The notes beneath the pieces are model-generated. The model saw nothing but the letters and a program-made list of their open reading frames with translations, was not told the DNA's origin and did no database searches. From the NCBI RefSeq assembly GCF_002087085.1, contig NZ_MWQY01000005.1, forward strand, positions 62,001-126,000: a DNA stretch of 64,000 nt, read 5' to 3'. Position numbers and translations under genes: made by a program. How positions within the stretch are numbered: the stretch's first letter is position 1; each line of letters opens with the position of its first letter. Positions 20,020 to 29,621 of the stretch are shown here, piece by piece.

Positions 20020-21813
20020 TTACTGCAGTTCTCCCAGCTTGTCGACCAGCCCTTCAAAACGCTTCATGGCGTTTCTGACGGGATCCGGCGAGGACATATC
20101 CACACCGGCAAGCTGCAGGGATTCCAGAGGATACCGGGAACCTCCGGACTTCAGGAATGACAGGTAGTCCTCCCGTTCACGGTCGCCTCCGGACAGGACC
20201 CTGTCGGCGAGGGCGATGGCAGCGGAAAGTCCGGTGGCGTATTTATATACATAGAAAGCACGGTAAAAATGGGGAATCCTCAATCCTTCGATGTCGGAAA
20301 CCTCTTCCAGCTTCATCTCGGGACCGAAGTATTCTTCCATAAGCCTGCGATAGGTACTTCGCAGAGATTCCAGGGTAAGGGGAGTGCCCTCTTCTCCCAT
20401 TTTGTGGACCAGATGCTCGAACTCCGCAAACATGGTCTGCCGGAAGATTGTTGCGACTATCTCGTCTATCTGTTTACCCACAAGATAGGACTTCATCTCT
20501 TCGCTTTCAGCTCTGTCCATCAGGTATTTGCCCAGAAGCTGTTCGTTGAAGGTGGAGGCAACCTCGGCTTCAAAAATGGTGTAGTCGTAATGCTGAAAAG
20601 GGTTGTTCCGTACGCTGTACCAGGAGTGCATTGAGTGGCCGCCCTCATGGGCCAGGGTAAAGACGTCCCTGAATACATCATCCTTGTAATTCATGAGGAT
20701 GTATGGTTCTCCGTGGTAACTGCCTGCAGAGAAGGCGCCGGAACGTTTTCCCTTGTTTTCGTAACGGTCGACCCAGCGCCCGAGGAGTCCCTGTTTCAGG
20801 GTGTCGCAGTACTCATCTCCCAGGGGAGCAAGGGCCGGGATGATGGTATCAACAGCCTCTTCATAGCTGTGCCGGACACGTATTTTCGGCGTAAGGGGAA
20901 CGTAGACGTCCCAGTGACGCAGCGTATCGATTCCCAGTTTCTCCCTGCGAAGGGAGTAGTACCGGTGCAGTACCGGCAGGTTTTCATGAATCACCGCAAT
21001 AAGGTTATCGTAGACCTCCTCGTCAACCTTATCGGGAAACAGAGCGGCAGCCCGGGCAGAGGGATAATTCCTTACCTTCGCCCTGTAGATATCCAGATGC
21101 ACGCTGCCGGAATAAAGGGCTGCCAGGGTGTTTTTATGGGCCTGGTAATGCCCGTAGAACTGACGGTAGGCCTTTTCCCGCAGGTTGCGGTCAGGATCCA
21201 TCAGAAAAGCCGAAAAGGTGCTCTGGGTAAGAGGTTTCGGTCCCTCCTCCGTTTCAATTTCTCCAAAATCAAGATCCACGTCGGTAAGGGCCTTGAAGCT
21301 TTTGGATGCAGTCTGGTTGGCCTCGGACTGCATGGAAAGAAGGCGCTCCTCTTTTTCACCCAGGGTGTGGGGTTTGAAACGGAGCATCTTGCCCAGCATA
21401 ATGCTATATTCAGCGACCCCGGGATCTTGCAGAAAACCTTCCATGACAGTGTCGGGAAGGGCGAGAATCTCGGGACGGAAATAACTCATGGCACTGTTCG
21501 ATTCCGTTGCAGCCCGCATAAAGCGGGCAAAACGTGCCTGGTGTTCATCACTGCCTCCGTCCTCCGAAGTCCGCAGATAGGCATAGGAGCCGAGGCGTTC
21601 CCCGAGCTCCTCGTGTTGAATCAGTGTTTCCAGGACCCTGGAGAGGTGTTCCGCCGAGTTCCCGAGGCTTCCTTTGAAGGATTCAATTTTTTTTATCTGT
21701 CCGGTAAACTCTTCAAGGGATTCTTCCCAGTCCCGGGAAGACGGAAAAAGTCCGCCCAGGTCCCAGGTATATGCTTCATTGATCTCTTCGCGCTTTGGTA
21801 TGGTATGCGACAT
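20020..21813 (-). CDS. pepF: Oligoendopeptidase F (peptidase M3B)
   Basis: YTWDL, GKRSGAFS, TLAHEGGHSMH, AEVASTFNE, IPHFYRAFYVYKYATG. Confidence 0.95.
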   Translation of the reverse strand: MSHTIPKREEINEAYTWDLGGLFPSSRDWEESLEEFTGQIKKIESFKGSLGNSAEHLSRVLETLIQHEELGERLGSYAYLRTSEDGGSDEHQARFARFMRAATESNSAMSYFRPEILALPDTVMEGFLQDPGVAEYSIMLGKMLRFKPHTLGEKEERLLSMQSEANQTASKSFKALTDVDLDFGEIETEEGPKPLTQSTFSAFLMDPDRNLREKAYRQFYGHYQAHKNTLAALYSGSVHLDIYRAKVRNYPSARAAALFPDKVDEEVYDNLIAVIHENLPVLHRYYSLRREKLGIDTLRHWDVYVPLTPKIRVRHSYEEAVDTIIPALAPLGDEYCDTLKQGLLGRWVDRYENKGKRSGAFSAGSYHGEPYILMNYKDDVFRDVFTLAHEGGHSMHSWYSVRNNPFQHYDYTIFEAEVASTFNEQLLGKYLMDRAESEEMKSYLVGKQIDEIVATIFRQTMFAEFEHLVHKMGEEGTPLTLESLRSTYRRLMEEYFGPEMKLEEVSDIEGLRIPHFYRAFYVYKYATGLSAAIALADRVLSGGDREREDYLSFLKSGGSRYPLESLQLAGVDMSSPDPVRNAMKRFEGLVDKLGELQ

Positions 21814-21823
21814 ACAATTCTCC

Positions 21824-22573
21824 TTATTTTCTGGCAATGCTTATCAGCCTTTGTGCGTTATGATCATAGGGACGTCCGTCAAATCCCCCTTTAATGCAGA
21901 CACTTTCAAAACCGCAGTTCAACAGGAGTTCCTTCAGTTCCAGTGCCGAGTAGATACGGTGGGAGAACCGGAAATTGTAATTTTCCTTCGGGCCCTTCAG
22001 GCTCCATATATTATTGAGGGTGGAAAAATCATCTTCGATTGTATATTCTCCCCGCACCGTGTAGCCGTCCATTTCATACTCTTCGGCGGCTACAAAGTCC
22101 CTGGACAGGATTTCCTTCCCGTTAACATCGATTACAAAAGCTCCTCCGGGCTTTAGAGATTCCCTTATATTCTCTATATAACGAAGCTCTTCCTGCTGAT
22201 CGGAAAAGAACCCGAAGGATGTAAACAGGTTAAGGGCCAGGTCGTAGTAATCCGGTCTCCGGAAAAACCGTACATCCTGCAGCATAAACTCTATATCCAG
22301 CTCTTCTGCAGCCGCGGTTTCCCGGGCTGCTTCAATGTAGCCCCTGGTCCGGTCTATAGCGGTTACCTGGTAACCGCGGCGGGCGAATTCCAGGGAGTGG
22401 CGACCCACACCGCAGCAGGAATCGAGGACCCTGCTGCCGGCTTCTGTACAGGTCATGCTTATAATCGATGCAACCTCTCCGGGGGTTTCCGCCCAGCGCT
22501 GGGGATCAAACATGACGGGAGCAAAGCGCAGCCAGAATTGATCGTCCTCAAACCACTCCAAGATCATCTCCAT
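21824..22573 (-). CDS. Class I SAM-dependent methyltransferase
   Basis: VLDSCCGVGRHSLEF, NLFTSFGFF, LKPGG. Start is ATG 22573 or TTG 22561. Confidence 0.9.
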   Translation of the reverse strand: MEMILEWFEDDQFWLRFAPVMFDPQRWAETPGEVASIISMTCTEAGSRVLDSCCGVGRHSLEFARRGYQVTAIDRTRGYIEAARETAAAEELDIEFMLQDVRFFRRPDYYDLALNLFTSFGFFSDQQEELRYIENIRESLKPGGAFVIDVNGKEILSRDFVAAEEYEMDGYTVRGEYTIEDDFSTLNNIWSLKGPKENYNFRFSHRIYSALELKELLLNCGFESVCIKGGFDGRPYDHNAQRLISIARK

Positions 22574-23156
22574 AGGACTGCAGGAATTTTCGCAGTGCAG
22601 AACCCGCTTTTCCCCGGTGGGAGATCCTGTTCTTCTCCTCTTCAGAAAGCTCCGCCATGGTCCTTCCTGTTTCAGGTATGAAAAAAACGGGATCATAGCC
22701 AAAACCGCCGCTGCCCCGGGGAGCCTCGGCGATTATACCCCGGCAGGTTTCCTGAAAAATAAAATACCGTAAATCATCGATGTAAAAAACGAGGGAGCAG
22801 ACAAAAGCTGCATTTCGGTTTGTCTTTCCCTGAAGATTGCGCAGGAGTAATTCGTACTTTTCCTGTGAAGAGAGGCTCGTTCCCTCATCTTCTCCGTAGC
22901 GGGCGGAGCGGATGCCGGGAGCACCGTCCAGGGCTTCCACGCAGAGGCCTGAATCATCGGCAATAACCGGACGACCCTCTGCCCGGGCGTGCAGAAAAGC
23001 AGCCTTGATAAGACTGTTTTCACAGAAGCTCGCACCCGTCTCTTCACATTCAAAAGAGGTCCCCAGATCCTCGGGTATCACTATACGGTGCTCAGGCAGG
23101 ATAGCCTGGAATTCATCCCGTTTGTGCCTGTTGCCTGTTGCCAGTAATAATTCCAT
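22548..23156 (-). CDS. rdgB: Non-canonical purine NTP pyrophosphatase (HAM1 family)
   Basis: ATGNRHK, ADDSGLCVEALDGAPGIRSARY, GFGYDPVF, KNRISHRGKA. Confidence 0.95.
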   Translation of the reverse strand: MELLLATGNRHKRDEFQAILPEHRIVIPEDLGTSFECEETGASFCENSLIKAAFLHARAEGRPVIADDSGLCVEALDGAPGIRSARYGEDEGTSLSSQEKYELLLRNLQGKTNRNAAFVCSLVFYIDDLRYFIFQETCRGIIAEAPRGSGGFGYDPVFFIPETGRTMAELSEEEKNRISHRGKAGSALRKFLQSYGDDLGVV

Positions 23157-23194
23157 GGACCTACTGTACAAAAAAAACAGCGTATCGTGAAGCT

Positions 23195-24073
23195 TTATTG
23201 TGAGGATACCTCTTTATCTCCGGCTTTAATCAAGGCTGTTCGAAGATAATGGAGACCGGAATCAACTGATCCCTTCGGTATGGAAAGTACCCTGGCTATC
23301 TCGGAATGGGTCGGGGCCATGGGTACATTGTGCAGTTCCTTCGTTAAGGCTCTCATTCGTCTGCGGGCAGCATGGTAACGCCGGTGGTACTGCTGACGTT
23401 CCTCGGTGACAAAGCAGTTGTCGCCGGCATTCTGATACATATGGGCCCGGGCCATATTTTCTTTTCGTAAAAGACTGAGCCGTAAATGACGCCTGCTTCT
23501 GGCATGCATACTGTCGCGCAGATGTTCAATCTTTTCATAGAGCCAGTTGTAGCTGACCCCTGTCGCTTCCGCGGTCTTTCTGATGTGGGCTGGAGAACAG
23601 AACCAGGCGTTTTTACAGACAAGACAGAGGAGTCTTCGGCGGAGATATTCAAGCTGTATTTTCCGCTTGTCATCGACGGAAAAATACTCTCGGTACTCAG
23701 GATCTATTGCTGTATCGCTGTCCGATGGCAGCTTATCGACAGCTTCCGGTTCAAGACCATCGAAGTACATCTTTTCGCTGTAATTCCTCAAGGTCTGTTG
23801 TCGTTTACTGTTGTAAAAATAGGTACATGTGGCCCGGCGTATGGACATATGGAGATATACCTCAAAAGGACTGCCGCGGTATACGAAGGAATCGATCATT
23901 TTCGGAATGCGTCGATAGATTTCGCAGAAGATCTCGGAGGCGGTGTCCGCTTCCTCCTTGAATTTATTATGCAGAAAATTATAGGAGAAGATGGAGATTT
24001 GGTTGATTACATGGGTTCTTGAAACCCGTCCTTCCTGGTACGCGAGAATGATCGGGGTCAATTTTTCTTTCAT
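23195..24073 (-). CDS. Divergent sigma70-family-like factor
   Basis: Region-2-like ADTASEIFCEIYRRIPKMIDSFVYRGSPFEVYL and region-4-like HTH PTHSEIARVLSIPKGSVDSGLHYLR. Confidence 0.62.
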   Translation of the reverse strand: MKEKLTPIILAYQEGRVSRTHVINQISIFSYNFLHNKFKEEADTASEIFCEIYRRIPKMIDSFVYRGSPFEVYLHMSIRRATCTYFYNSKRQQTLRNYSEKMYFDGLEPEAVDKLPSDSDTAIDPEYREYFSVDDKRKIQLEYLRRRLLCLVCKNAWFCSPAHIRKTAEATGVSYNWLYEKIEHLRDSMHARSRRHLRLSLLRKENMARAHMYQNAGDNCFVTEERQQYHRRYHAARRRMRALTKELHNVPMAPTHSEIARVLSIPKGSVDSGLHYLRTALIKAGDKEVSSQ

Positions 24074-24115
24074 ACACTTTCCTCATTGGATACTGCCCTC
24101 CCGGACCAACATAAA

Positions 24116-24131
24116 AGCAAAGTGCGTGCCA
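24116..24131 (-). promoter_or_regulatory. sigma54 (RpoN) -24/-12 promoter
   Basis: Minus strand TGGCACG-CACT-TTGCT, an exact match to TGGCACG-N4-TTGCW, intergenic and 42 bp before the ATG. Confidence 0.85.
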
Positions 24132-24157
24132 AAGGTTTTAAATGTGGTGTTTAGATT

Positions 24158-24195
24158 AAAAAAAGGCAGTCTCCCCCCAGAAACGGAAACTGCCT
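24158..24195 (-). terminator. Terminator after the ior/paaK/ACT operon
   Basis: AGGCAGT...ACTGCCT stem followed by a T-run on the minus strand. Confidence 0.6.
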
Positions 24196-24261
24196 GTTAC
24201 AATCAGTTACAAAAGAGTGAAGAATTCCCCGGATGAAGCGTTTACATACAGACCGGAGAAC

Positions 24262-24678
24262 CTAAAAATTCTTTATTGCCGTTAATTTATGCTCCCTGAA
24301 AATCTTGTTTCCATGTTCAGTATCGTCAACCTTGAAAATTACCACCGCCTTGTTGTTCTTGTTTTCCAGGGATGAATACAAATATTCAATATTGACGCCG
24401 GTCTTGTGGAAGAGCTCCATAATCTCGGCAAGTCCTCCCGGCCGGTCCTCCAGTTCAATGGCAAATACGTCGGTAACCTTTGCGGTGAATCCCTTTTTAT
24501 CCAGGGCGTCCAGGGCTTTGTGGGGATTGTCTACCACTATCCGTAAAATACCGAAGTCAGCGGTATCGGCAATTGTTGCGGCCCTCATATTCACGCCGGC
24601 ATCACCCAGGGTCTTGGTTACCTCCGCGAGACGGCCGGATTTATTTTCCAGAAATACGGAAATCTGCTGTATTGTCAT
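24262..24678 (-). CDS. Tandem ACT-domain amino-acid-binding protein
   Basis: QISVFLENKSGRLAEV, ADTADFGILR, DRPGGLA, NIEYLY. Confidence 0.92.
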   Translation of the reverse strand: MTIQQISVFLENKSGRLAEVTKTLGDAGVNMRAATIADTADFGILRIVVDNPHKALDALDKKGFTAKVTDVFAIELEDRPGGLAEIMELFHKTGVNIEYLYSSLENKNNKAVVIFKVDDTEHGNKIFREHKLTAIKNF

Positions 24679-24695
24679 TTCTTCCTCCTGCAGGC

Positions 24696-25997
24696 TTATA
24701 TCTGCCGTTTATCTATTACACGGGTTGCTTTGCCGATGCTTCTCTCCAGGGATTTTGGTTCCACCAGTCTGATAATCGCACCGATTCCCAGACTTGAGCG
24801 GATCTCTTCGGAAATCTTGCTGCGGATTCTCTCGAGTCCCTTTGTTTCGTCGCTGAAGAAGCTCTCTTCCACTTCAACACGGATCTCTACCTCATCAAGA
24901 TGAGTACTCCCGCGGTCGACGACGATCTGATAATGGGGCTGGGTTTCTTCAATCCGGATGAGTACTTCCTCAATCTGGGAGGGGAATATATTGACCCCAC
25001 GGATTATCAGCATGTCGTCGGTCCGTCCCAGAAGGCGGTGCATCTTTATTGTTGTTCTGCCGCAGGAACAGGTCTCCCGGTACAGATAGGTGATATCCCG
25101 GGTGCGGTAGCGCAGTATGGGGGTACCTTCCTTGGTAAGGGTTGTAAAAACCAGCTCTCCCTTTTCTCCCGGGGGAAGGACCTCTCCGGTTTCAGGATTT
25201 ATTATCTCGGGATAGAAAAAATCTTCATTGATGTGGAGCCCGTCCTGGACTTCGCATTCCGCTGCAACCCCCGGGCCGATAATCTCGGTAAGCCCGTAGA
25301 TATCATGGGCTGTAAGGCTGAGCTTGTTTTCGATCTCCCGCCGCATGTTGTCGCTCCATGGTTCCGCCCCGAAGCAGCCGGCCTTCAGGGGCAGGGACCT
25401 GAAGTCTATGCCTTCCTCTGCCGCGGTCTCTGCAAGAAAAAGCGAATAGGAGGGGGTACAGGTCAGAAGGGTGGTGCCGAAGTCCCGCATGATCATGAGC
25501 TGACGCTTGGTATTGCCGGCGGATATGGGAATAACGTTTGCTCCCAGCATCCTGGCCCCATAGTGGACGCCCAGTCCTCCGGTGAAAAGGCCGTAGCCGT
25601 AGGCGTTCTGTATAACGTCCCCGGGGCCTGCTCCGGCCATGGCGAGGGTTCTGGCCATGGCGTGGGACCAGGTTTCTATGTCCCGCCGGGTATAGGCTCC
25701 GACTACCGGGGTTCCCGTTGTTCCCGAAGAGGTATGAACCTCGACTATTTCCGATTCGTCCACCGCAAGCAGGCCGTAGGGATAGGTTTCCCTGAGCTCC
25801 TGCTTGGTGGTAAAGGGTATTTTGCTAATATCCTCGAGACTGTTGATGTCCGAAGGCCGAATCCCCGCCTCGTCAAACTTTCGCCGGTAAAAGGGCACCC
25901 GGATATAGAGCCGGGTAACCAGTTCCTGCAGTCGCTGGAGCTGCAGTGCCCGAAGCGATTCCGGATCGCGGTATTCAGCGGATCTGTCCCAAACCAT
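24696..25997 (-). CDS. paaK: Phenylacetate--CoA ligase family protein, copy 2
   Basis: [56 protein letters not shown]. Confidence 0.93.
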
Positions 25998-26012
25998 TTT
26001 TCCTCCTCTTTG

Positions 26013-27305
26013 TTACATTCTGGGGCGTTGGTCCAGTACCCGTACTGCCTTGCCCTCGGCAACAGGCAGGAAACCGGGTTCATGAAGCTCCACCGTGGGA
26101 TTGATACTGATGGAGACCTTCAGGTTTTCTGCAATTCTGGAACTCAGGGCCTTCAGGTCTCTGGTGTCGTCGGTAAAAATGTTTTTTCCGACCTCGGTTT
26201 TTACAATCAGTTTGTCCAGAGCGCCCATCTTCTGAACAACAATCTGGTAGTTTGTGCCTATCTCGGGCATGGCCATGATTACCTCCTCGATCTGGGAGGG
26301 AAAAACATTCACGCCGTTGATGATCAGCATATCGTCGGTGCGCCCGGTAAAACGCTGAATCCTGCGATGGGTCCGTCCGCAGGGACACTTATCCGGATAT
26401 ACTGCGGTGATGTCCCGGGTGCGGTAGCGGAGGAGGGGGGTGGCCTGACGGCACAGGGTCGTAAGCACCAGTTCGCCGTATTCTCCGTCCTCGACCTGAT
26501 CGAGGCTCTCGCGGTCGATGATCTCCATGATGTAGTTGTCTTCCCACACGTGCATCCCCTGCTTGAAAACACATTCGAAGGCGACCCCGGGACCGTTCAT
26601 CTCGCTGAGGCCGTAGGAATTGTACACGTCTATGGAAAAGAGCTCTTCGATCTTCCGGCGGATATCCTCACTGTGGGGTTCCGCACCCACCAGCGCCTTT
26701 TTCAGGGCCAGATCCTCAAGCCTGATGCCTTCCGCCTCCATCCGTGAGGCAAGATGCAGCATATAACTGGGGGTTGCATGGACGACGGTTGTGCCGAAGT
26801 CCTTCATGAGTTTGAACTGTCGTTTGGTGTTGCCGGAACTGGCGGGAATTACCAGGAGACCTGCAGCCTCCGCGCCGTAATGGAGTCCCAGGCCTCCGGT
26901 AAAGAGGCCGTAGGTCATCATGTTCTGAAAAACATCCCTGCGCTGTGCACCGGTACAGAGAATGGAACGGGCCGAAAGGGCGGTCCAGGCATCGAGGTCA
27001 TGCTGATTATGATAGATGACCGTCGGCGTTCCGGTGGTTCCGGAGGATGCATGCAGACGCACAACATCGTCCAGGGGTATGGAGAGCATCCCGTAGGGAA
27101 AGGCGCTTCTGAGGTCATCCTTGCTCGTGTAAGGTATTTTCTTCAGGTCTTCCAGGGATTCGATGTCTTCGGGCCTGCTTATGCCGATTCCACCGAGACG
27201 CCGGGAGTAAAAAGGAGTCTTGAGGGCATGTCCCACGGTTTCCCGCAGTCGTGCAAGTTGAAGTTTTTCCAACTCCTCCCTGGGAACGGTTTCGACGGCC
27301 GTCAT
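26013..27305 (-). CDS. paaK: Phenylacetate--CoA ligase family protein, copy 1
   Basis: [50 protein letters not shown]. Confidence 0.92.
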   Translation of the reverse strand: MTAVETVPREELEKLQLARLRETVGHALKTPFYSRRLGGIGISRPEDIESLEDLKKIPYTSKDDLRSAFPYGMLSIPLDDVVRLHASSGTTGTPTVIYHNQHDLDAWTALSARSILCTGAQRRDVFQNMMTYGLFTGGLGLHYGAEAAGLLVIPASSGNTKRQFKLMKDFGTTVVHATPSYMLHLASRMEAEGIRLEDLALKKALVGAEPHSEDIRRKIEELFSIDVYNSYGLSEMNGPGVAFECVFKQGMHVWEDNYIMEIIDRESLDQVEDGEYGELVLTTLCRQATPLLRYRTRDITAVYPDKCPCGRTHRRIQRFTGRTDDMLIINGVNVFPSQIEEVIMAMPEIGTNYQIVVQKMGALDKLIVKTEVGKNIFTDDTRDLKALSSRIAENLKVSISINPTVELHEPGFLPVAEGKAVRVLDQRPRM

Positions 27306-27886
27306 GATCCGGCTCCGCAGGCCTCCGCCAGGCTGAGTTCAAAGGCCCTGCGGTTCGCCTCCTGCACCTTTTCTCCCTTGGATCGGAAGCGTTCGTCGAT
27401 GGCGGCAATGAAGTTCTCCCTGCTTATGGGTATTGATTCGGAAGCAGCTCCGATCATGACGATGTTAACCGCCTTGAGGCTTCCGGACTCCCGGGCAATG
27501 CTGCGGGCATCGACAATCCGTGCCCCGGGCTGGGAAAGTATTTCTTCCCGGATTTTATCCATACCGGGATAGACCGGAATATTCTCCACCCCCTCAGCGG
27601 CGCTGATGAGACTCCCCGAAGGGGAGAGGTAACTGATGTGCCGCAGGGCCTCCAGGGGTTCCATGCTCAGGAGCAGATCTCCTCCCGCAAGAGGGATAAG
27701 GTCCGAATCTATGGGTCCGTCGGACAGGCGCAGGTGCGAAACCACCGCTCCTCCGCGCTGGGACATCCCGTGAATTTCCGACTGGCGGACCGTCAGCCCC
27801 TGCTTCAGGGCGGCGGAAGCTATGATGGCGGCGACGCTCAGGGTTCCCTGTCCGCCGACGCCTGCAAGAATTATGTCGTATTTCAT
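27302..27886 (-). CDS. iorB: Indolepyruvate:ferredoxin oxidoreductase beta subunit
   Basis: AGVGGQG, SEIHGMSQRGGAVVSHLR, EPLEALR. Confidence 0.93.
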   Translation of the reverse strand: MKYDIILAGVGGQGTLSVAAIIASAALKQGLTVRQSEIHGMSQRGGAVVSHLRLSDGPIDSDLIPLAGGDLLLSMEPLEALRHISYLSPSGSLISAAEGVENIPVYPGMDKIREEILSQPGARIVDARSIARESGSLKAVNIVMIGAASESIPISRENFIAAIDERFRSKGEKVQEANRRAFELSLAEACGAGS

Positions 27887-29508
27887 TACGCCTGTCCCTC
27901 CTGGGCAGCCTTCTTTTTATCCCGCTTTGCAGTTTCGATGCATTCCCGGATGGATACAATCACCGAAAGTCCGGGGTGATCGATCTCTTCTGCAATTATG
28001 CGTCGGTTCTCTTCGGCGTTCTTCTTCAATGGGGTTATGCTGCGAATGTGTGCAGGATCGATCTCCAGTCCCTCTATCATGCGGTGTACCCGCGAGGTGG
28101 GAAGAATCGTCTCCTGGCCCCCGGTCATTCCGACGGTTCCGTTGTCAAGAATAACGACCGTCATGGGGGTATCCGCCGCTGCGGCGTCGACAAGGGAGGT
28201 TATCCCAGAATGTAAAAAGGTACTGTCTCCGATGGTAGCTACTACCCGTTGTACTCCGGCTTCAGCGGCTCCCTTGGCCATACCTATGGAGGCTCCCATA
28301 CAGACAATGGTTTCAATGGCCCGATAGGGCGGCAGGGCCCCCAGGGCATAACAGCCGATATCGGAGGTAACAACCGCATGGGAATCATCCCCGATTGCCT
28401 CGTTTATAGCCTGGTAGGTATCGATATGGGGGCAGCCCTGGCATAACTGGGGAGGCCGTCCGGGAAGCTCCATTCCGGGCTCGGAACGAAGCTGACGAGC
28501 CTCGAGGCCCAGGGCCCTGCGAACCGCATCAGGGGTAAGCTCTCCCGTCCGGGGAAGGGTTCCGTCGAGTTTACCGCTGATTGTTATATCCTGCTCCAGA
28601 ATCCCCTTGAGCTTCTCTTCTATGAGGGGGTAACCCTCTTCGATTACGATTATCCGTTCACAAGCGGCGGCAAGGGTCCTGATTTTATTCCGGGGAAGGG
28701 GGTAAGCACTTATATGCAGCCTGGGAATCTCAGAACTCAGTTCGGGGAGGTTTTCATCGTAGTAATTTCTCCCCAGACCGCTGGTTATGATTCCCAGGGG
28801 ATATTTTTTCCCTCCCCGGGCATTTTCCAGCGGATTTCTGGCGGAATCCCCGGCCCAGGCGAGCATCTCCTTCTCTTTTTCCAGCAGATCCAGGTAGTTC
28901 TGCCTGGCTGTGGCGGGAAGCAGCATCCAGCCCCGTTTTTCCTCCGGTTTGCTCAAGGAGTTTTCATCCCGTTTTGCCCCCACCTTGACAATCGCCCGGG
29001 AATGGGCGAGACGGGTAACGAGGCGCAGCATGACGGGAATGTGAAACTTCTCGGAAAGCTCGAAAGCCTCAAGGGTCATTTCGTAGGTTTCCTGCTGGTT
29101 TCTCGGCTCGAGGCATATAATCTTGGCGAATTCTGCAAAAAACCGGGAGTCCTGCTCATTCTGGGAACTGTGCATCCCGGGATCATCGGCAACGGCAAGT
29201 ACGAGACCTCCCCGTATATTCAGCAGTCCTGAATTTACAAAAGGGTCTGCGGCCACATTCAGGCCCACATGTTTCATGGTTACCAGTACACGTTTTCCCA
29301 CGAAGGAGACCCCCAGGGCGTCCTCATAGGCGGTCTTTTCGTTGGAACACCAGGCAGCATGGGGTGCTCCGTGACGTGTTTTGTAATCAATAAGGAATTC
29401 TAAAATTTCGGTGGATGGTGTGCCCGGATACCCGTAGGCGGCGCTGATGCCGGCATGAACGGCACCTAAAGCAACCGCCTCGTCCCCTAAAAGGACGATG
29501 TCGCTCAT
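27886..29508 (-). CDS. iorA: Indolepyruvate:ferredoxin oxidoreductase alpha subunit, without C-terminal ferredoxin domain
   Basis: GYPGTPSTEI, MKHVGLNVAADP, DDPGMHSSQNEQDSR, LCQGCPH, DIGCY, GDSTFLHSG. Confidence 0.93.
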   Translation of the reverse strand: MSDIVLLGDEAVALGAVHAGISAAYGYPGTPSTEILEFLIDYKTRHGAPHAAWCSNEKTAYEDALGVSFVGKRVLVTMKHVGLNVAADPFVNSGLLNIRGGLVLAVADDPGMHSSQNEQDSRFFAEFAKIICLEPRNQQETYEMTLEAFELSEKFHIPVMLRLVTRLAHSRAIVKVGAKRDENSLSKPEEKRGWMLLPATARQNYLDLLEKEKEMLAWAGDSARNPLENARGGKKYPLGIITSGLGRNYYDENLPELSSEIPRLHISAYPLPRNKIRTLAAACERIIVIEEGYPLIEEKLKGILEQDITISGKLDGTLPRTGELTPDAVRRALGLEARQLRSEPGMELPGRPPQLCQGCPHIDTYQAINEAIGDDSHAVVTSDIGCYALGALPPYRAIETIVCMGASIGMAKGAAEAGVQRVVATIGDSTFLHSGITSLVDAAAADTPMTVVILDNGTVGMTGGQETILPTSRVHRMIEGLEIDPAHIRSITPLKKNAEENRRIIAEEIDHPGLSVIVSIRECIETAKRDKKKAAQEGQA

Positions 29509-29621
29509 GGTTGACTCCTTCAAGTAAATCCTGTCTGGATAGCTGATCGCCGACCATTGTATGACACATCCTTCCGGGGGGTCAAGAATAGATTTTAACC
29601 ATGACTGAAGTTACATTACTT

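Follow-up and report, generated by a model that had tools for sequence, protein, structure and literature searches.

In the flagellar hierarchies of Vibrio and Campylobacter, sigma-54 (RpoN), which is an alternative sigma factor, has the gene of another sigma factor, FliA, under its control. In Borrelia, the Rrp2-RpoN-RpoS pathway is central to virulence, and it is often regarded as peculiar to this genus. Papers on Borrelia burgdorferi describe direct transcription of rpoS by sigma-54 and an NtrC-type activator from a -24/-12 promoter (PMC3037356; PMC12655853; PMC3162934), and work on Pseudomonas syringae describes enhancer-binding proteins (HrpR/HrpS) and a sigma-54 promoter that drive hrpL, the gene of a sigma factor of the extracytoplasmic function (ECF) type (PMC5263251). 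Here, we describe a locus in a spirochaete genome (assembly GCF_002087085.1; 4.2 Mb, 79 contigs), contained in a 64,000-nucleotide stretch of contig NZ_MWQY01000005.1 (positions 62,001 to 126,000 of the forward strand), which we call the window and whose numbering is used throughout. On the minus strand of the window, a predicted sigma-54 promoter stands before the gene of a 292-aa sigma-like protein that appears to be ECF derived. We consider it fairly probable that this promoter drives the sigma-like gene and its operon in a sigma-54-to-sigma cascade, with an upstream TGTAA repeat as part of the module.

Predicted sigma-54 promoter and its conservation

In the promoter TGGCACGCACTTTGCT (Table 1), the GG and GC dinucleotides stand 10 nt apart. 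The pattern TGGCAC-N5-TTGCW had this one match on the two strands of the 64-kb window (pattern scan), against an expectation of 0.02 in shuffled windows, where at least one match was found in 2 of 100 shuffles. The site is intergenic and points to the 292-aa open reading frame (ORF), with 42 nt from the motif end to the ATG at 24073; a consensus scan for sigma-70-type -35/-10 elements gave no match on the strand of the gene within 22900-24500. The transcription start site is predicted at about 24105 by arithmetic on the sequence, because the C of the GC is placed at -12. Between the promoter and the upstream gene lies a hairpin (24195-24164, followed by U7 to 24158) with a folding energy of -22.1 kcal/mol (z = -4.41; 0 of 200 shuffles equally stable), which a simple consensus terminator scan did not list. 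It comes after the stop of an ACT-domain gene (24262-24678) whose orthologue at locus L010, in the same genus, carries ACT_8. A first-pass annotation, made from the letters of the window, had described an exact -24/-12 consensus on the minus strand at 24131-24116, intergenic, 42 bp before the ORF and shielded from the upstream operon by a terminator-like hairpin; each of these points was confirmed, and the start site that it expected (24104-24106) agrees with the one predicted here.

For a test of conservation, 35 homologous loci were taken from spirochaete genomes and metagenome-assembled genomes (MAGs); two with a truncated 5' end (L026, L040) were excluded, which with the window left 34. 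Each locus was scored by how many of the 11 specified positions agreed in the 150 nt before the start, and the background was taken from both strands of the remaining sequence of these loci (30 matches of at least 9/11 in 506,640 positions). A match of at least 8/11 was found in 27 of the 34 loci (1.94 expected), of at least 9/11 in 23, the window included (0.29 expected), and of at least 10/11 in 16 (0.01 expected). The position of the motif is constant, at 37-95 nt upstream of the start codon, and the consensus of 31 aligned promoter-bearing loci reads TTGGCA[CT]-N5-(T)TGC[AT], then 20-45 nt, a GGAGG-type ribosome-binding site (RBS) and the start codon. Another 40 loci of the phylum gave at least 9/11 in 7 of 12 from the same class and 1 of 28 from other classes, so that motif conservation before homologues, a check proposed with the first-pass annotation, stands far above background at 23/34 and 8/40 loci. 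The -24/-12 promoter is thus conserved mostly within the same class and rarely elsewhere in the phylum.

The occasional match in shuffled windows would agree with a chance or non-functional motif, but the count of 23 loci, the constant distance from the start codon and the genome-wide specificity of the promoter when combined with its upstream repeat, with zero reversed-pattern matches (see below), make that explanation very unlikely. From these comparisons we infer that the sigma-54 promoter is genuine and that the sigma-like gene is very probably sigma-54 dependent.

The genome of the window carries one intact rpoN (196.9 bits, 499-aa frame) and 15 strong (205-253 bits) plus 3 weak Sigma54_activat (AAA+) domains of bacterial enhancer-binding proteins (bEBPs), both of which had been named beforehand as things to look for. 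The pattern TGGCAY-N5-TTGCW has 22 sites in this genome, the window promoter among them. The genes behind the sites include amtB, gltB, a glutamine-synthetase-like gene, TRAP dctP, genes of sugar-binding proteins and a chemoreceptor gene. Genes such as amtB, gltB, glutamine-synthetase-like genes and dctP are typical sigma-54 targets, and since such targets stand behind its sites, the pattern selects real promoters. Co-occurrence with rpoN was rejected as a discriminator, as rpoN is present in 293 of the 301 genomes of a phylum sample.

Two canonical group-2-like sigma-70 genes (290 and 285 aa) also lie behind TGGCAY-N5-TTGCW (Table 1). In NCBIfam they match RpoD C-terminal and RpoS models best, with scores that do not reach the equivalog cut-offs. 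This organism may therefore have three sigma or sigma-like genes under the control of RpoN, and because the RpoS-like genes have sigma-54 motifs of their own, the 292-aa gene would form an additional branch rather than the counterpart of RpoS.

Among the other sites, one (G000:C56:181250, minus strand) lies 72 nt 5' of groES and another (G000:C75:35936, plus strand) 44 nt 5' of an Hsp20-family gene, which hints that part of the heat-shock set may be RpoN dependent in this genome. In a 9-mer comparison of the 22 promoter upstream regions, the motif CCGGGGAATTC, found upstream of the window promoter, was seen to precede also hyp164, hsp20 and a threonate kinase gene; it is present 5' of tctC as well. 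The number of 9-mers common to the 22 promoters is by our estimate about that expected by chance.

Three further observations concern the region around the promoter. A GGGAGG block (24091-24100, minus strand) lies about 10 nt past the predicted transcription start, distinct from the start-codon RBS, and is invariant in the four loci of the genus (the window and L010-L012). Four short metatranscriptome contigs fell on 22500-24400, at 22516-22777 and 24185-24330, and none over the ORF or the promoter (small shares of four runs). An Rfam search of 22400-24700 gave only a chance-level match to CrcZ (E 0.19).

Sigma-like protein

The sigma-like gene is single copy in the genome, and the public names of its family are "hypothetical protein" and, from one source, "sigma24 family". 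A word-indexed search gave 12 relatives. A profile search of 1.84 billion representatives gave 874 at E ≤ 1e-3, 522 at E ≤ 1e-10 and 127 at E ≤ 1e-30, and 29 of the 30 nearest Atlas clusters were unnamed and spirochaetal. When 127 family members were searched singly against Pfam, Sigma70_r4_2 was found in 18 and Sigma70_r2 (E ≤ 0.01) in 10, with other families in at most 2. PHROGs and PADLOC gave 0 matched families.

Profile comparison with hhalign used 23 ECF sigma factors from the genome of the window and its relatives. Residues 9-195 of the family aligned with positions 5-173 of 190 of this profile (93.8%, P 1.7e-7, 164 columns), and residues 254-287 with the helix-turn-helix (HTH) of ECF region sigma4.2 (94.6%, P 7e-8). 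Taken by itself, the N-terminal domain gave 81.4% (P 1.2e-5); the central domain by itself gave 33.8%, with its alignment in the sigma4.2 region. A control with the reversed ECF profile gave 10.3%. These values supersede an earlier comparison with three ECFs of the same genome (90.5% and 57.9%). In a PDB profile search, the C-terminal HTH matched SigH (E 0.013) and SigR (E 0.016); conservation across the family is highest in this HTH (PTHxEIAxxLxIPKGSVDSGLHYL). The protein thus has a sigma4-type domain with a 4.2 HTH at its C terminus and a second, weaker sigma4-like HTH in the center.

Assignment to the other sigma groups failed: no RpoS or RpoD model of NCBIfam matched and hhalign to the RpoS-like group gave 1.9%, and FliA_WhiG was without a match, with hhalign to the FliA group at 7.4%. 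The compact two-domain layout of ECFs (about 170-200 aa; 175-198 aa for the ECFs of this genome) is exceeded by a 292-aa chain that adds a further HTH and a helical hairpin of 60 residues. Because the curated thresholds and the compact two-domain architecture both failed, the protein is filed as ECF derived and sigma-like, not as an ECF member. The first-pass annotation had been unable to place it with RpoS, FliA or a standard ECF group, a judgement with which NCBIfam, Pfam and hhalign agree.

The AF2 model (pLDDT 81.6, pTM 0.49) has an N-domain of four helices, followed by a disordered linker (103-119), an HTH of three helices (142-188), a hairpin (190-248, with helices H190-218 and H223-248) and a terminal HTH (256-291), so that the order proposed from the letters (region-2-like N terminus, central HTH, long helical stretch, region-4-like C-terminal HTH) was recovered in full. 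Sigma factors made up 11 of the best 12 Foldseek rows. A VIA search with the whole model returned a list filled by helical hairpins, and Foldseek's own matches were compared by VIA instead; matches of the hairpin are uninformative on function because it matches any helical hairpin. Against sigma2 domains, residues 1-100 gave Z 9.5 for ShbA (106 aa), 9.3 for SigC (84 aa, rmsd 3.0), 9.0 for sigmaE (88 aa), 8.8 for SigK, 8.4 for BldN (20% identity) and 8.2 for SigW, values that support but do not prove sigma2 homology because helical domains can reach Z 8-9.5 through a common arrangement without being homologous. The whole chain aligned with sigmaE in the holoenzyme over 167 of 186 residues (Z 7.9; model residues 3..289). 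By hhalign and VIA, then, a sigma2 domain is present, its homology is remote, and the proposed check for sigma-domain similarity by profile and structure came out positive at both sigma2 and sigma4. The central domain modelled alone had a pLDDT of 91, with no sigma3 or sigma4 chain among the Foldseek and VIA matches listed. We read the protein as an ECF-derived core (sigma2 plus a degenerate sigma4) with a C-terminal extension composed of the hairpin and a second sigma4.2-type HTH.

With two HTH modules and a long helical hairpin that could serve as a dimerization coiled coil, the protein might instead be an ECF-derived DNA-binding regulator that is no longer a sigma factor, a repressor or activator working behind a real promoter, whose target might be its own operon or the TGTAA repeat. 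Deviation of the region 2.4-like positions from the ECF consensus in the alignment, and scores below threshold for all curated sigma models, would fit such a protein. The sigma2-like domain is nevertheless retained and conserved across the family, and the alignment with holoenzyme sigmaE runs through nearly the whole chain. We know of no role for a sigma2 domain besides binding core polymerase and the -10 element, and we regard loss of sigma activity as unlikely, though by no means negligible.

Upstream repeat, operon and neighbourhood

The direct repeat TGTAACTGATTGTAA starts 80 nt upstream of the -24 element. When the four loci of the genus were aligned, three conserved islands stood out from a spacer that varies elsewhere: TGTAA-N5-TGTAA (invariant in 4/4), the -24/-12 element, and GGGAGG. 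Of the 31 promoter-bearing loci, 13 carry the exact repeat no more than 200 nt upstream of the -24 element; the remaining sequence of these loci, taken as background, has 1 exact match in 188,808 nt. From its start to the promoter there are 42-45, 52-56, 62, 80-81 or 92 nt, and in one case 167 nt; the distances approximate helical-turn steps, to which no statistic is attached because the loci are related.

Genome scans were run for the composite of repeat and promoter. With a spacer of N20-50, 41 relatives gave 8 matches in 7 genomes, 7 of them directly before the sigma-like gene (family hidden Markov model E-values of those seven genes, 1e-70 to 1e-102). With N50-80, six genomes of the genus gave 7 matches, 5 before the sigma-like gene and 2 before orthologues of tctC. 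In total, 12 of the 15 genome-wide matches stand directly before the sigma-like gene, and the reversed pattern, used as a control, had 0 matches in both scans. On this evidence the TGTAA-N5-TGTAA repeat appears to be part of the module and probably is the binding site of its regulator. Near confinement of the composite to this gene would also fit autoregulation by a DNA-binding, non-sigma product of the kind considered above.

The half-site TGTAA(C) resembles ECF -35 elements of the TGTAAC or AAC type. A sigma-70-family factor with two -35-type readers, its central and C-terminal HTHs, might then bind both half-sites, which are one helical turn apart, before its own sigma-54 promoter. We hold this idea to be doubtful; if it were true, a sigma-70-type protein would act back on a sigma-54 promoter, either within the enhancer or in competition with it, which would explain why the composite occurs almost exclusively before the sigma-like gene.

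A single other arrangement of this kind exists in the genome (G000:C79:130293-130388, minus strand, equal to L155:3794-3889), where TGTAAC-N4-TGTAAC lies exactly 80 nt before the sigma-54-type motif TGGCACGATTCCTGCT. That site faces the gene of a TctC-family receptor, divergent from an activator gene of PrpR_N-AAA+-HTH_8 type; a further sigma-54 motif lies downstream, before tctB, and the composite site is kept in one sister genome. A PrpR-type bEBP was tried as the conserved activator and rejected as a conserved partner, because PrpR_N occurs in only one of the five other composite-carrying genomes.

Directly downstream of the sigma-like gene and on the same strand, a Ham1-family rdgB is found in 34 of the 35 loci, with L013 as the sole exception; its start lies at most 400 nt downstream in 28 loci and overlaps the stop codon of the sigma-like gene in 6. 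In the window, a consensus scan found no terminator-like site in the 38-nt gap between the two genes. Because of this gap and the rdgB synteny, the sigma-54 promoter probably drives an operon, in which rdgB is probably co-transcribed with the sigma-like gene. The gene pepF follows rdgB in 24 of the 35 loci, and the L010 orthologues of the methyltransferase ORF and pepF match Methyltransf_25 and Peptidase_M3.

Such constant partners, in an order that persists even in a clade lacking the sigma-54 motif, would suit a promoter whose main role is the expression of rdgB and pepF in certain conditions, with the first ORF as a passenger of minor function. The tight operon would suit a non-sigma regulator as well. 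Both promoter and repeat track the 5' end of the sigma-like gene, however, and the ORF is strongly conserved (874 representatives at E ≤ 1e-3, with a nearly invariant C-terminal HTH). A passenger role is in our view very unlikely, and expression of the downstream genes is in any case compatible with the cascade that we favor.

In that cascade, sigma-54 holoenzyme and an enhancer-binding ATPase would act at the promoter at 24131-24116 and initiate RNA synthesis near 24105. The transcript would contain the 292-aa ORF first and most likely run on into rdgB, possibly as far as the methyltransferase gene and pepF. Its first product would descend from ECF-type factors of the sigma-70 family, with residues 9-195 as a complete ECF-like unit; most likely it associates with core RNA polymerase and retargets the enzyme to a regulon. 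All checks that were run came out in favor of the RpoN-to-alternative-sigma cascade proposed by the first-pass annotation, which is supported.

Several observations weigh against this cascade. The motif is weak or absent in 11 of the 34 loci, among them one whole clade: no match of at least 8/11 was found at L022, L023, L028-L031 and L039 (L030 with 35 nt of upstream sequence only), which together with L024 (8/11) form that clade, and L013, L027 and L032 also reach 8/11 at most. It is absent, moreover, from 5 of the 12 further same-class loci and 27 of the 28 other-class loci, and sigma-54 control therefore does not extend to the whole family. Pfam gave no match for the window protein, and with the NCBIfam general sigma-70/ECF model TIGR02937 (residues 24-283 against model positions 8-163 of 165, E 2e-4) it scores 21.1 bits where the cut-off is 42.9, so that no curated ECF threshold is reached. 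Foldseek returned no row at E ≤ 1e-3, and the central HTH matched generic HTH or homeodomain folds only (best Foldseek E 1.1, best VIA Z 5.6). To our knowledge, the 292-aa architecture is unlike that of any described sigma group. Invariant pairing with the housekeeping gene rdgB is unusual for a stress-type sigma cascade, and neither an anti-sigma gene nor an autoregulated ECF-type promoter was evident at the examined loci.

The distribution of the family was followed across the phylum sample, where its profile was found at E ≤ 1e-8 in 208 of 301 genomes and in 0 of 6 from a group of small genomes (f10) that we guess might be Borrelia-like. Distant members (E 1e-9 to 1e-30; L107-L134) are present in 45/45 and 38/38 sampled genomes of two large families of other classes. 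Synteny is kept in 10 of the 12 same-class loci; at the 28 other-class loci, the sigma-54 motif occurs once and DHH/Ham1 synteny not at all. These distant members may be paralogous relatives.

Upstream of the sigma-like gene, 20 of the 35 loci have a DHH/DHHA1 phosphoesterase gene, in place of which the genus of the window has the ACT gene and phenylacetate-CoA-ligase-like genes. In the motif-poor clade (L022-L024, L028-L031, L039), the order sigma-like gene, rdgB, pepF is kept; the five of its loci that were scanned with Pfam (L023, L028, L029, L031, L039) all have a divergent radical-SAM gene (lysine-aminomutase-like) upstream, not DHH. In one MAG (L032:282-1583), a single case, the upstream gene encodes a fusion of a HATPase_c_2 domain (the type of anti-sigma serine kinases) with a cyclic-nucleotide-binding domain. 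In the window, the ACT gene has upstream of it (24696-29523, minus strand) two paralogous phenylacetate-CoA-ligase-like ORFs (433 and 430 aa) and ORFs resembling subunits of indolepyruvate ferredoxin oxidoreductase; judged by the translations and the AMP-binding match of an L010 orthologue, this looks like an aromatic amino-acid fermentation cluster.

Table 1. Features of the locus and related sites in the same genome (window positions unless a contig is named)
Feature	Position	Strand	Remarks
Predicted sigma-54 (-24/-12) promoter TGGCACGCACTTTGCT	24116..24131	-	exact consensus, 11/11 specified positions
Sigma-like ORF, 292 aa	23195..24073	-	ECF-derived, Spirochaetota-specific family
Sigma2-like domain	23774..24049	-	residues ~9-100
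Central three-helix HTH	23489..23656	-	residues ~140-195; aligns to ECF sigma4 position
Long basic helical hairpin	23318..23506	-	residues ~190-252
C-terminal sigma4.2-like HTH	23213..23314	-	residues 254-287
RBS-like GAGGA	24080..24084	-	6 nt 5' of ATG
Predicted intrinsic terminator of upstream ACT-domain gene	24158..24195	-	stem of 11 bp, then U7
Direct repeat TGTAACTGATTGTAA, TGTAA-N5-TGTAA	24197..24211	-	10-bp period; candidate enhancer/regulator site
Motif CCGGGGAATTC	24222..24232	-	common to few other sigma-54-type promoters of the genome; significance uncertain
rdgB (Ham1-family NTP pyrophosphatase)	22548..23156	-	38 nt downstream of sigma-like ORF
Methyltransferase ORF and pepF (oligoendopeptidase F)	20020..22702	-	possible later operon genes
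Group-2-like sigma gene, first	motif G000:C24:26401; ORF 25491-26363	-	
Group-2-like sigma gene, second	motif G000:C11:67340; ORF 66460-67317	-	

Comparison with known systems

Like the Borrelia burgdorferi cascade, the locus belongs to a spirochaete and has a sigma-54 promoter before the gene of another sigma or sigma-like protein. The output differs, as it is not RpoS by either the model searches or the hhalign value given above, the latter obtained against the RpoS-like sigmas of this same genome. From the flagellar hierarchies the system is set apart by a separate FliA of 262 aa in the genome of the window (438.7 bits with the WhiG/FliA model). HrpL shows the canonical two-domain form of an ECF and has a known type III secretion system regulon, whereas the protein described here has 292 aa, an extra HTH and a hairpin, and remains below the curated thresholds.

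ECF41, ECF42 and other groups combine an ECF core with a fused C-terminal domain and have no adjacent anti-sigma gene (PMC3426412; PMC8999054; PMC7826278). The protein of the window likewise appears to have an ECF core with a C-terminal extension and no evident adjacent anti-sigma gene, but its extension consists of a hairpin that bears a sigma4.2-like HTH, and conservation within the protein is highest there. The Spirochaetes groups ECF208, ECF229 and ECF242 are presented in one source with putative anti-sigma factors and other gene contexts (PMC7826278), features by which they appear distinct from the sigma-like family. No description of the family or its promoter was found in the literature searched or in the passages of PMC7826278, the supplements of which could list it.

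The association with the promoter spans many free-living and host-associated spirochaetes of one class and suggests that RpoN tops a multi-branch sigma hierarchy in spirochaetes. An ECF core with a second sigma4-like HTH would be a candidate new sigma architecture, and the composite cis-signature offers a concrete starting point from which to look for the signal, activator and regulon. Sigma-54-to-sigma cascades as such are known; what is different here is the family that forms the output, unannotated and absent from Pfam, together with an upstream element of its own.

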